This document shows positions 796 to 36,554 of a stretch of 64,000 bases of DNA, in pieces. The notes below the pieces were generated by a model. That model did no database searches, was not told the DNA's origin, and worked only from the letters and a program-made list of their open reading frames with translations. Numbering within the stretch: the first letter of the stretch is position 1; each line of letters starts with the position of its first letter. This DNA is from a virus. Where the stretch lies: positions 96,001-160,000 of the IMG/VR virus record IMGVR_UViG_3300021963_004854; one strand, written 5' to 3'. The translations under genes and the position numbers were made by a program.

Positions 796-872
796 GCGCC
801 GTTAGCTCATCTGGATAGAGCGCGAGACTTCTAATCTTGAGGCAGCAGGTTCGAGTCCTGCACGGCGCACCA
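796..872 (+). tRNA. tRNA-Arg(TCT)
   Basis: Cloverleaf, anticodon loop CTTCTAA, GGTTCGAGTCC, encoded CCA; TTGACA promoter at 759. Confidence 0.95.
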
Positions 873-29522: not shown

Positions 29523-29759
29523 ATGAGTGATGTTGTAGCAGTAGACCAACTTCGTCTGTTTATTGAACGTATTGAAAACATCGAAGTGGAAATTGATGCG
29601 AAGAAGACTGACCGCAAGGAAGTCTATTCAGAATTGAAGGGTGAAGGCTTTGATGCCAAGGCAGTTCGTGCTATTGTGCGCCTCCGTAAGAAGGAAGCAC
29701 ATATCCGTCAAGAAGAAGATATGATTCTTGATACATATCGAAATGCAATTGGCGTTTAA
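29523..29759 (+). CDS. gapR: GapR (DUF2312) nucleoid-associated protein
   Basis: QLRLFIERIE..KEVYSELKGEGFDAKAVRAIVRLRK..ILDTY. Confidence 0.9.
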   Translation: MSDVVAVDQLRLFIERIENIEVEIDAKKTDRKEVYSELKGEGFDAKAVRAIVRLRKKEAHIRQEEDMILDTYRNAIGV

Positions 29760-34861: not shown

Positions 34862-35708
34862 ATGGCGGTATAGCGTCATTAGGGTAACCTTCGGCAACGA
34901 AGGCCAAAGCAGGGACTCCTACGTACCTGCGCCGGTAACGGTCCATCTATACAAGCCCAGGTAAGGGTTGTCTCGGCCATGGCCGTAAGCAATCCCCGTC
35001 AGTAGAATGGCGGTAGGCAGTAAGTGAGTGATATAAGTCCGAAAGGATATGAACAGAGCCAGTCGGTGAGTTCTAATAGACTGTGGTGGTCTAGCTGTAT
35101 CGAACCAAACTCGCGAATGCTGAAAAACTAATGGGTAATCGCTGAGTCTGATCTAGCAAGAAAAGGCAAAGCGGTAGCACAATAGTTGAACCGATGAGGG
35201 GAGACTAGAAGTGCGGTTGATTAGTCCGCAAGACGAAAGACATGAGGAGTGTTGTATTTTGTATCTAACAAGATACGAAGCAACTGGAGCAGCACTTCTT
35301 GGTAGGTTCGCAAATTGCTTAATGGTAAAGCAACTGACTCTTAATCAGTAGATTCTAGGTTCAAATCCTAGTTTGTAACAAAAAGCGAAAGTCTGCTCCA
35401 GTGCTATGTGAAAGGTGCTTAATACCTAACACGGAAGTGAATTGGGTTCACGGATTCCCGCAAGGATGAAGTGATTGATCCGAGTGAAGACGTAGCGGTT
35501 TAGCGACTGCGAACAGCTTGCAAGGCTGGCGGAAGAACGAAGGTCGAATAGCATAGCATGATAAGTGATAAGCCACACTTCAAAAAAGGCAGCACTGAGG
35601 AATACTAGATGACCAGCGATGGCTCTAGTGGATAACGAGTTAACACTTCTCGCAAGGAAGTCGGTACGGCTCAAAGGTCCTCAACTAAAAGCAGTAATCT
35701 CATGCTTT
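34862..35708 (+). ncRNA. GOLLD-like giant structured RNA (~850 nt)
   Basis: No credible ORF, own promoter (TTTACA..TATAAG, 34820-34848), many GCAA/GAAA-capped hairpins, embedded tRNA domain, terminal AAAGCA-GTAATCTCA-TGCTTT hairpin, within a phage tRNA cluster; boundaries approximate. Confidence 0.7.
35308..35379 (+). tRNA. CCA-less tRNA-Lys(CTT)-like domain inside the giant RNA
   Basis: D arm GCTT-AATGGTA-AAGC, ACTGA-CTCTTAA-TCAGT, CTAGG-TTCAAAT-CCTAG, weak acceptor, no CCA. Confidence 0.75.
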
Positions 35709-36194: not shown

Positions 36195-36279
36195 GGGTCG
36201 GTAAAGCCAGTGGCTCTGGCAGTCGGACTGTAAATCCGATCCGTTTTCGGGGGAGGATCGATACCTCACTGGCCCACCA
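36195..36279 (+). tRNA. tRNA-Tyr(GTA), divergent D and T loops
   Basis: Loop CTGTAAA, variable arm, T loop ATCGATA, CCA. Confidence 0.85.
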
Positions 36280-36376: not shown

Positions 36377-36449
36377 GCGACTGTTCTCCTGGGTGAGGAC
36401 TCAGCCTTCCAAGCTGACGGAGAGGGTTCGAATCCCTTCGGTCGCTCCA
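36377..36449 (+). tRNA. tRNA-Gly(TCC)
   Basis: Loop CTTCCAA, U73, CCA. Confidence 0.9.
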
Positions 36450-36451
36450 AT

Positions 36452-36532
36452 GCCCCCGTATACCCTCTGGCTACGAACCAGTGGAAAGGTTAACTGAATT
36501 ACATGCAGGTTTGAGTCCTGTCGGGGGCTCCA
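36452..36532 (+). tRNA. D-armless tRNA-Arg(ACG)-like RNA with enlarged variable region
   Basis: GCCCCCG/CGGGGGC acceptor + T + CCA; CTGG-CTACGAA-CCAG; GCAGG-TTTGAGT-CCTGT. Confidence 0.7.
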
Positions 36533-36554
36533 TTCTCAACGAAGGAAAAATAAT

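Follow-up and report, generated by a model that had tools for sequence, protein, structure and literature searches.

The gene for tRNA-Arg(ACG) described here lies in a window of 64,000 nt, the whole stretch of viral DNA under study. Its RNA does not qualify as a cloverleaf but seems to do the work of a class I tRNA-Arg, a function that is inferred. Judged from the sequence, the D arm is split and reordered with all pieces present. Compared to the standard numbering, the strands follow in the order 1-9, 22-44, linker, 10-21, linker, 48-76, with one block moved. The initial annotation had described a D-armless tRNA; a D hairpin is indeed absent, but the D arm was not lost, and the term is a misnomer. 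Since at least 178 distinct homologs share this layout, the transposition can be taken from their alignment as real and not as a product of chance. We consider it probable that the gene encodes a phage elongator tRNA-Arg(ICG), which is charged by the host, takes part in translation and attains the usual L shape although its strands follow another path. That it is a functional tRNA is strongly inferred, in the absence of biochemical data.

The features of the gene are listed in Table 1. The perfect 7 bp acceptor stem (36452-58 with 36522-28) with CCA, the hairpin with the anticodon loop CTACGAA and the T arm were all found where the initial annotation had placed them. The loop (CUACGAA in the RNA) occupies 36471-77, with the anticodon ACG at 36473-36475, and one of the five pairs of the T stem is G-U. 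The strand 22-26, which in a standard tRNA forms the 3' half of the D stem, follows directly after U8-A9, and the spacing between position 7 and position 27 is only 7 nt. Position 27 is the last T of TATACCCT, and position 43 is the T at the start of the 23-nt segment on the variable side; together they form the U.U mismatch that closes the anticodon stem. In the transposed segment, A15 has U48 as its Levitt partner, A19 (36497) is the partner of U56, and A20 (36498) is the ArgRS identity position. RNAfold predicted the acceptor stem, the anticodon hairpin and the T arm without a D hairpin; the z score of -1.47 was unremarkable by itself. With regard to the Rfam tRNA family RF00005, the gene meets the criterion for acceptor and T arm (7-bp acceptor, 5-bp T stem, T loop, NCCA end) and that for the anticodon arm (four Watson-Crick pairs plus U27.U43, 7-nt loop, U33, A37). 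It fails the cloverleaf criterion, since no D hairpin separates the acceptor arm from the anticodon arm. The gene is part of a tRNA array, and the CCA of tRNA-Gly(TCC) ends 2 nt upstream. An identical sequence is present in the IMG/VR loci L015 and L037.

Table 1. Features of the rewired tRNA-Arg(ACG) gene (window coordinates).
Feature	Coordinates	Strand	Basis
Complete tRNA-Arg(ACG) gene of 81 nt, D-arm segment transposed	36452..36532	+	Sequence, at least 178 homologs
Acceptor stem 5' strand, positions 1-7	36452..36458	+	Sequence, RNAfold; pairs 1:72 to 7:66 covary
U8, A9, then equivalents of 22-26 (U22 A23 C24 C25 C26)	36459..36465	+	23/24 covary with 12/11
Anticodon arm 27-43 and G44	36466..36483	+	4 Watson-Crick pairs, U27.U43 mismatch
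Linker 1 (GAAA), chain from 44 back to 10	36484..36487	+	Family range 2-11 nt
Transposed D segment: predicted stem strand G10 G11 U12 U13; loop A14 A15 C16 U17 G18 A19 A20	36488..36498	+	
Linker 2 (5 nt, likely including the A21 equivalent, register unresolved) and U48	36499..36504	+	15:48 covariation
T arm, loop UUUGAGU, U56 at 36512 replacing C56	36505..36521	+	Sequence, family alignment
3' strand of the acceptor stem with U73 as discriminator (36529) and an encoded CCA (36530-32)	36522..36532	+	Sequence

The homologs were collected with a first pattern in which only the anticodon loop and the T loop were fixed and which matched 62 viral loci. A D-loop-like motif was present in the unconstrained gap of 49 of the 51 distinct matches, compared to 13 expected from shuffling. 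Three anticodon-blind patterns and a structure parser led to at least 178 distinct members. The parser was preset for U33 and a purine at 37 but did not demand the D-stem pairs 11:24 and 12:23; its mis-registration lost five true UCU members. The initial annotation had named a lack of conserved homologs as the first of its refuting conditions; this condition does not hold, since such homologs are numerous. The 178 members listed have a median pairwise identity of 58%, and the layout is common to many unrelated phages. Nearly all members stem from phage tRNA arrays, with another tRNA at a distance of up to 2 kb in 166 of the 178. BLAST revealed copies in cultured phages of Streptomyces and Microbacterium, where they are unannotated, and a copy in Rhodococcus phage Trina that is annotated as tRNA-OTHER. 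Cultured carriers include Streptomyces phage Persimmon and Microbacterium phage A3Wally. Identical or near-identical copies were present in independent contigs (L015, L019, L027, L037, L038, L042).

All six Arg anticodon types, from both Arg codon boxes, were found in the family (among the listed members ACG 87, UCU 52, UCG 20, CCU 12, CCG 2, GCG 1), while four listed members have other anticodons (Ile GAU 2, Ile UAU 1, CAU 1). The proportion of ACG was raised by the first pattern; the loci from the blind scans comprised 46 with UCU and 38 with ACG. Some phages harbor two to four rewired isoacceptors. The RNAs have a length of 76-94 nt, with linkers of 2-11 nt (first) and 2-19 nt (second) that also vary in sequence. 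All 178 listed members kept A9 and A37; 34 of them have an extra base following A9. CCA is encoded in 130 of 178, U-1 is present in 126 of 179, and N73 is G, U or A in 71, 58 and 48 listed members, respectively.

Searching 185,579 species genomes with the ACG pattern resulted in 19 raw matches, of which about 7 were genuine, six of these in dense tRNA arrays. Because of this small number the family is assigned to viruses and mobile arrays. Rewired tRNA-Arg(ACG) genes within tRNA arrays were also seen in cellular assemblies, on a contig of Rhizobium rosettiformans W3 (L095) and on a 412-kb contig of an alphaproteobacterial MAG (L108). Both copies probably belong to prophages or integrated elements.

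The pairs of the moved D stem were strongly supported by covariation. Pair 12:23 was Watson-Crick in all 178 listed members, with four pair types and a mutual information (MI) of 1.55, and 11:24 in 177 of 178 with an MI of 1.34. By corrected mutual information, both rank among the pairs of the acceptor and anticodon stems. On a tree that included those columns, 12:23 changed about 25 times and 11:24 about 14 times. When the register was slid by one base, pairing decreased to 45-128 of 178 and the MI to 0.13-0.62; due to this loss of pairing and MI, a register with A9-U13 pairing was rejected. The ACC/GGT pairing that had been suggested to extend the anticodon helix is equivalent to 23-25 with 10-12 and was borne out by covariation. 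Pair 10:25 was weaker (paired in 103 of 178 listed members), and 13:22 and 26:44 were mismatched in most members. In the rewired family 11:24 is mostly G:C, with the purine at 11, whereas tRNAs usually have Y11:R24 (PMC10424219). Since 11 is mostly a purine and 10:25 is often unpaired, fit to the ribosome is not guaranteed.

The tertiary contacts followed the moved segment as well. Of the 178 listed members, 169 have A:U and 6 have G:C at the Levitt pair 15:48, with 3 exceptions, and G15:C48 arose about 6 times on the tree in separate lineages. Where both positions were free in the search, 19:56 was G:C in 85 and A:U in 8 members without any mismatch (Fisher p 1e-11, kinship uncorrected). The A:U state arose about 5 times, in both ACG and UCU members, on a tree with those columns masked. 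In two A:U members (L044, L066) the nearest neighbours were G:C in each case. The tree is weak, with about 75 columns. The initial annotation had proposed that an A of the AACTGAA segment could replace the G19:C56 contact and had suggested a test for covariation of T-loop position 56 with the variable segment. The proposal was borne out by the covariation at the free positions, and the window gene itself has A19:U56. The canonical tRNAs of the same loci swap 19:56 likewise (1546 G:C, 39 A:U, about 2%); therefore, U56 represents a common type of elbow variation, which the rewired family shares with other tRNAs. Pair 18:55 gives no covariation information because it is invariant in the family. 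As far as can be deduced from the alignment, the contacts 15:48 and 19:56 and the pairs of the D stem are retained via the moved segment.

Standard tools miss this type of tRNA. ARAGORN did not call the rewired tRNA-Arg(ACG) in default mode, with -ps90 or in mitochondrial mode, and Rfam gave no match to 36452-36532 at the gathering threshold or at E<=10. Since ARAGORN picked up only 9 of the 178 listed members within their loci, phage tRNA sets are under-annotated, and analyses of "missing" phage Arg tRNAs may be wrong.

The bacterial identity set for tRNA-Arg comprises A20 as main ArgRS determinant, C35, U/G36 and A/G/U73 (PMC9976931). The window gene meets this set with A20, C35, G36 and U73. 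A20 was present in all 174 listed Arg members, including 71 of 71 in which no search pattern fixed the base, and it was absent in two of three pattern-unfixed Ile/CAU members (two of four overall, a small sample). Conservation of A20 in Arg members and its frequent loss in the others is the pattern expected from the sequences of a charged tRNA-Arg. We also compared loci with at least 10 other tRNAs for the presence of a canonical gene with the same anticodon. A canonical ACG gene occurred in 3 of 71 loci with versus 6 of 18 loci without a rewired ACG gene (p 0.002), and a canonical UCU gene in 0 of 18 versus 24 of 71 (p 0.002). These p values are not corrected for kinship and the loci are partial. 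For UCG and CCU no significant avoidance between rewired and canonical genes was seen in loci of this size. The rewired gene thus replaces the canonical gene for ACG and UCU, as the two rarely co-occur.

The record comprises 171,566 bases, is 100% complete according to CheckV and contains a T4-type gp23 capsid gene. The array in the window consists of about 25 tRNA genes and a GOLLD RNA. In the whole genome no second CGN-reading tRNA-like gene was found, as the initial annotation had stated for the tRNA set, and the sole other Arg tRNA is a canonical UCU gene (window 796-872). The window thus adds to the family an ACG member with the A19:U56 swap that is the sole CGN reader of a complete genome. 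CGN codons amount to about 27 per 1000 codons (CGU 11.9, CGC 9.1, CGA 4.4, CGG 1.9). Neither an ArgRS gene nor a TadA-like gene was found in the complete genome. A zinc deaminase encoded at 45960-46391 matches a Pfam model that includes TadA; it was rejected as TadA with 21 bits versus a cut-off of 150, looks like a dCMP deaminase and provides no evidence for a phage editing enzyme. Two freshwater metatranscriptome contigs of close relatives cover the tRNA gene (X1 36443-36549 with 2 differences, X6 36443-36547 with 4 differences). Due to low depth, possible DNA carry-over and lack of ends they cannot show transcription or processing.

A gene for a GapR-like nucleoid protein (window 29523-29759, under the curated cut-offs) adjoins the tRNA array, and a permuted tmRNA with the tag ANDNVAFAGYALAA is present beyond the window (G000:C1:14720-15093). 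Taken together, these two genes suggest an alphaproteobacterial host, which remains an inference. The GOLLD RNA lies at window 35244-35706 (187 bits to Rfam RF02032) and contains a stretch that was called as a tRNA-like Lys(CTT) (35308-35379), and GOLLD-like contigs were deep in metatranscriptomes. The tRNA-Tyr(GTA) at window 36195-36279 was missed by ARAGORN in default mode, was found at -ps90 and gave a weak match to the Rfam tRNA-Sec model.

With canonical tRNA-Arg (class I, RF00005; for example, the tRNA-Arg(UCU) of this phage) the rewired RNAs share the 7/5 branch, U8, A14, G18, 15:48 and 19:56, the 7-nt anticodon loop, the A20/C35/G36 set, CCA and the place in a tRNA array. They differ in that 10-21 follow after 44 and not after 9, which results in a three-way junction and an extended anticodon helix, and also in the often unpaired 10:25 and the mostly purine-pyrimidine 11:24. 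In the tRNA-like domain of tmRNA a stemless D loop contacts the T loop, but there is no anticodon arm and the D loop is on the 5' side, whereas the rewired RNAs have an anticodon arm and a D loop moved in 3' direction. Circularly permuted tRNA genes of red algae and archaea also have reordered segments in the DNA; their ends are moved and they are processed back to a cloverleaf, while the rewired genes have normal ends and a moved internal block. A permuted or split tRNA gene would have its 3' half encoded ahead of the 5' half and splice motifs at the junctions; the rewired genes do not qualify, as their ends follow the normal order and both the length and the sequence of the linkers are variable. 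The D-armless tRNAs of mitochondria, for example mt-tRNA-Ser, also have no D hairpin between acceptor and anticodon stems, but these short and flexible RNAs lost the D arm (PMC7609411), while the rewired RNAs keep all of its parts and both elbow contacts. A mitochondrial-type D-armless tRNA was ruled out, since D-stem pairs and the G18/R19/A20 loop are kept 3' of the anticodon. Allo-tRNAs, selC* and 8/4 tRNAs are likewise non-standard bacterial or phage tRNAs from metagenomes that are missed by tools, some with Arg anticodons; in contrast to the rewired RNAs, they keep the cloverleaf and have an 8/4 or 9/3 split and a long V-arm hairpin (PMC5389517). Assignment to the allo-tRNA, 8/4 or 9/3 class was ruled out by the 7/5 branch and the changed strand order. 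A literature search, which did not cover most subscription journals, found no description of the rewired family.

In the proposed structure the chain would bypass the D hairpin after U8-A9 and run along 22-26 into the anticodon arm. It would exit at 44 and, after a short linker, pair back as 10-13, so that the anticodon helix is prolonged by the D stem; the D loop 14-20 would then form, and at 48 the chain would enter the T arm. This path would preserve the D stem, the Levitt pair and the elbow contacts 18:55 and 19:56. In the core of normal tRNAs the positions 9/23, 45/10 and 21/48 are neighbours. Each of the three new links thus connects residues that lie near each other anyway, which explains how the L shape can survive the rearrangement, although we have no 3D model. 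The array would be transcribed as a long precursor, from which host RNase P and 3' nucleases may release the RNA. TadA requires only the anticodon hairpin, and the host enzyme could edit A34 to inosine. Host ArgRS would charge the tRNA via A20/C35/G36, EF-Tu would deliver it, and it would read CGU, CGC and CGA codons. Processing, editing of A34, charging, delivery by EF-Tu and decoding are inferred only, without direct evidence.

A tRNA mimic that does not translate, acting as decoy or competitive inhibitor for a host nuclease or toxin directed against tRNA-Arg or as a sponge for ArgRS or TadA, would likewise retain A20, the anticodon loop and the L shape. No substrate of bacterial ribosomes with such a topology has been described, and the near restriction to viruses and mobile arrays also fits a mimic. 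We nevertheless regard such a role as unlikely, since the canonical gene with the same anticodon is replaced and not accompanied, the anticodons span all six Arg types with up to four rewired isoacceptors in one locus (L171), and the 7/5 acceptor-T branch, the 7-nt loop with U33 and A37 and the CCA end are retained.

The tertiary covariation is compatible not only with the rewired RNA but also with a precursor that is cut and re-joined at the RNA level into a normal cloverleaf, like the transcripts of permuted or split tRNA genes. When the segment 10-20 was restored in silico, ARAGORN called the right anticodon in 178 of 178 members. This test is weak: shuffled controls were called in 173 of 178, and the scores were only modestly separated (median 113.9 versus 109.8, restored higher in 147 of 178). 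Re-joining would take three cuts, after which three ligations would have to set up another order, there is no conserved splice motif at the junctions, the junction linkers vary over the full ranges given above in length and also in sequence, 34 members have an extra base after A9, and T4-type RNA ligase 1 was not found in a search without positive control. This makes re-joining very improbable. That neither ARAGORN nor Rfam called the gene could also point to a decayed pseudogene or an assembly artefact. The compensatory changes throughout the family refute this, in line with the copies in independent contigs and with homologs from cultured phages of Streptomyces, Microbacterium and Rhodococcus, and we give this explanation hardly any credence.

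For the translating tRNA-Arg that we favor, the reason for the unusual strand path is less clear. Colicin D reportedly recognises the anticodon loop and the D-arm of tRNA-Arg(ICG). The anticodon loop of the window gene is the same as the usual bacterial one, and any escape would therefore have to come from the changed core. Phage tRNAs have been proposed to counter host anticodon nucleases, including colicin D (PMC10264068). Evasion of host tRNA nucleases had been tentatively raised in the initial annotation. The layout may be kept because it lets the tRNA escape host enzymes that recognise the normal D-arm path and then destroy or block tRNA-Arg, for which we see somewhat less than an even chance; about the same probability is given to a neutral one-off rearrangement that was passed on by exchange between tRNA arrays. 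Even more tentatively, we suggest a second natural tRNA topology on bacterial ribosomes, for Arg and some Ile, which is kept because its strand path defeats an unknown or under-recognised host defence targeting tRNA-Arg.

The cloverleaf has been treated as universal for translating tRNAs outside mitochondria. If the proposed function is true, the shape of a tRNA and not the order of its strands is what ArgRS, EF-Tu and the bacterial ribosome recognise. The covariation in the family maps which core contacts matter, the strong bias for arginine suggests that infection puts tRNA-Arg under a specific pressure, and the rewired layout may serve as a scaffold for engineered tRNAs.

Some variants were seen besides the main layout. 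Five phage loci (L171, L053, L056, L214, L234) carry three or four rewired Arg isoacceptors each. The rewired members with the Ile anticodons GAU and UAU and with the CAU anticodon are found in L263, L307 and L323, and L263 and L307 also carry a canonical gene with the same anticodon. A second Arg(ACG) layout without D hairpin is present in L036 (5708-5759, +), L104 (5349-5400, -) and perhaps L050 (6520-6572, -); it has a longer helix (CCCT/AGGG plus GC/GC) round the anticodon arm and does not match the register of the main family. In L004, L007, L030, L054 and L208 the second linker has 17-19 nt and could form an extra hairpin before U48, with RNAs of 92-94 nt.
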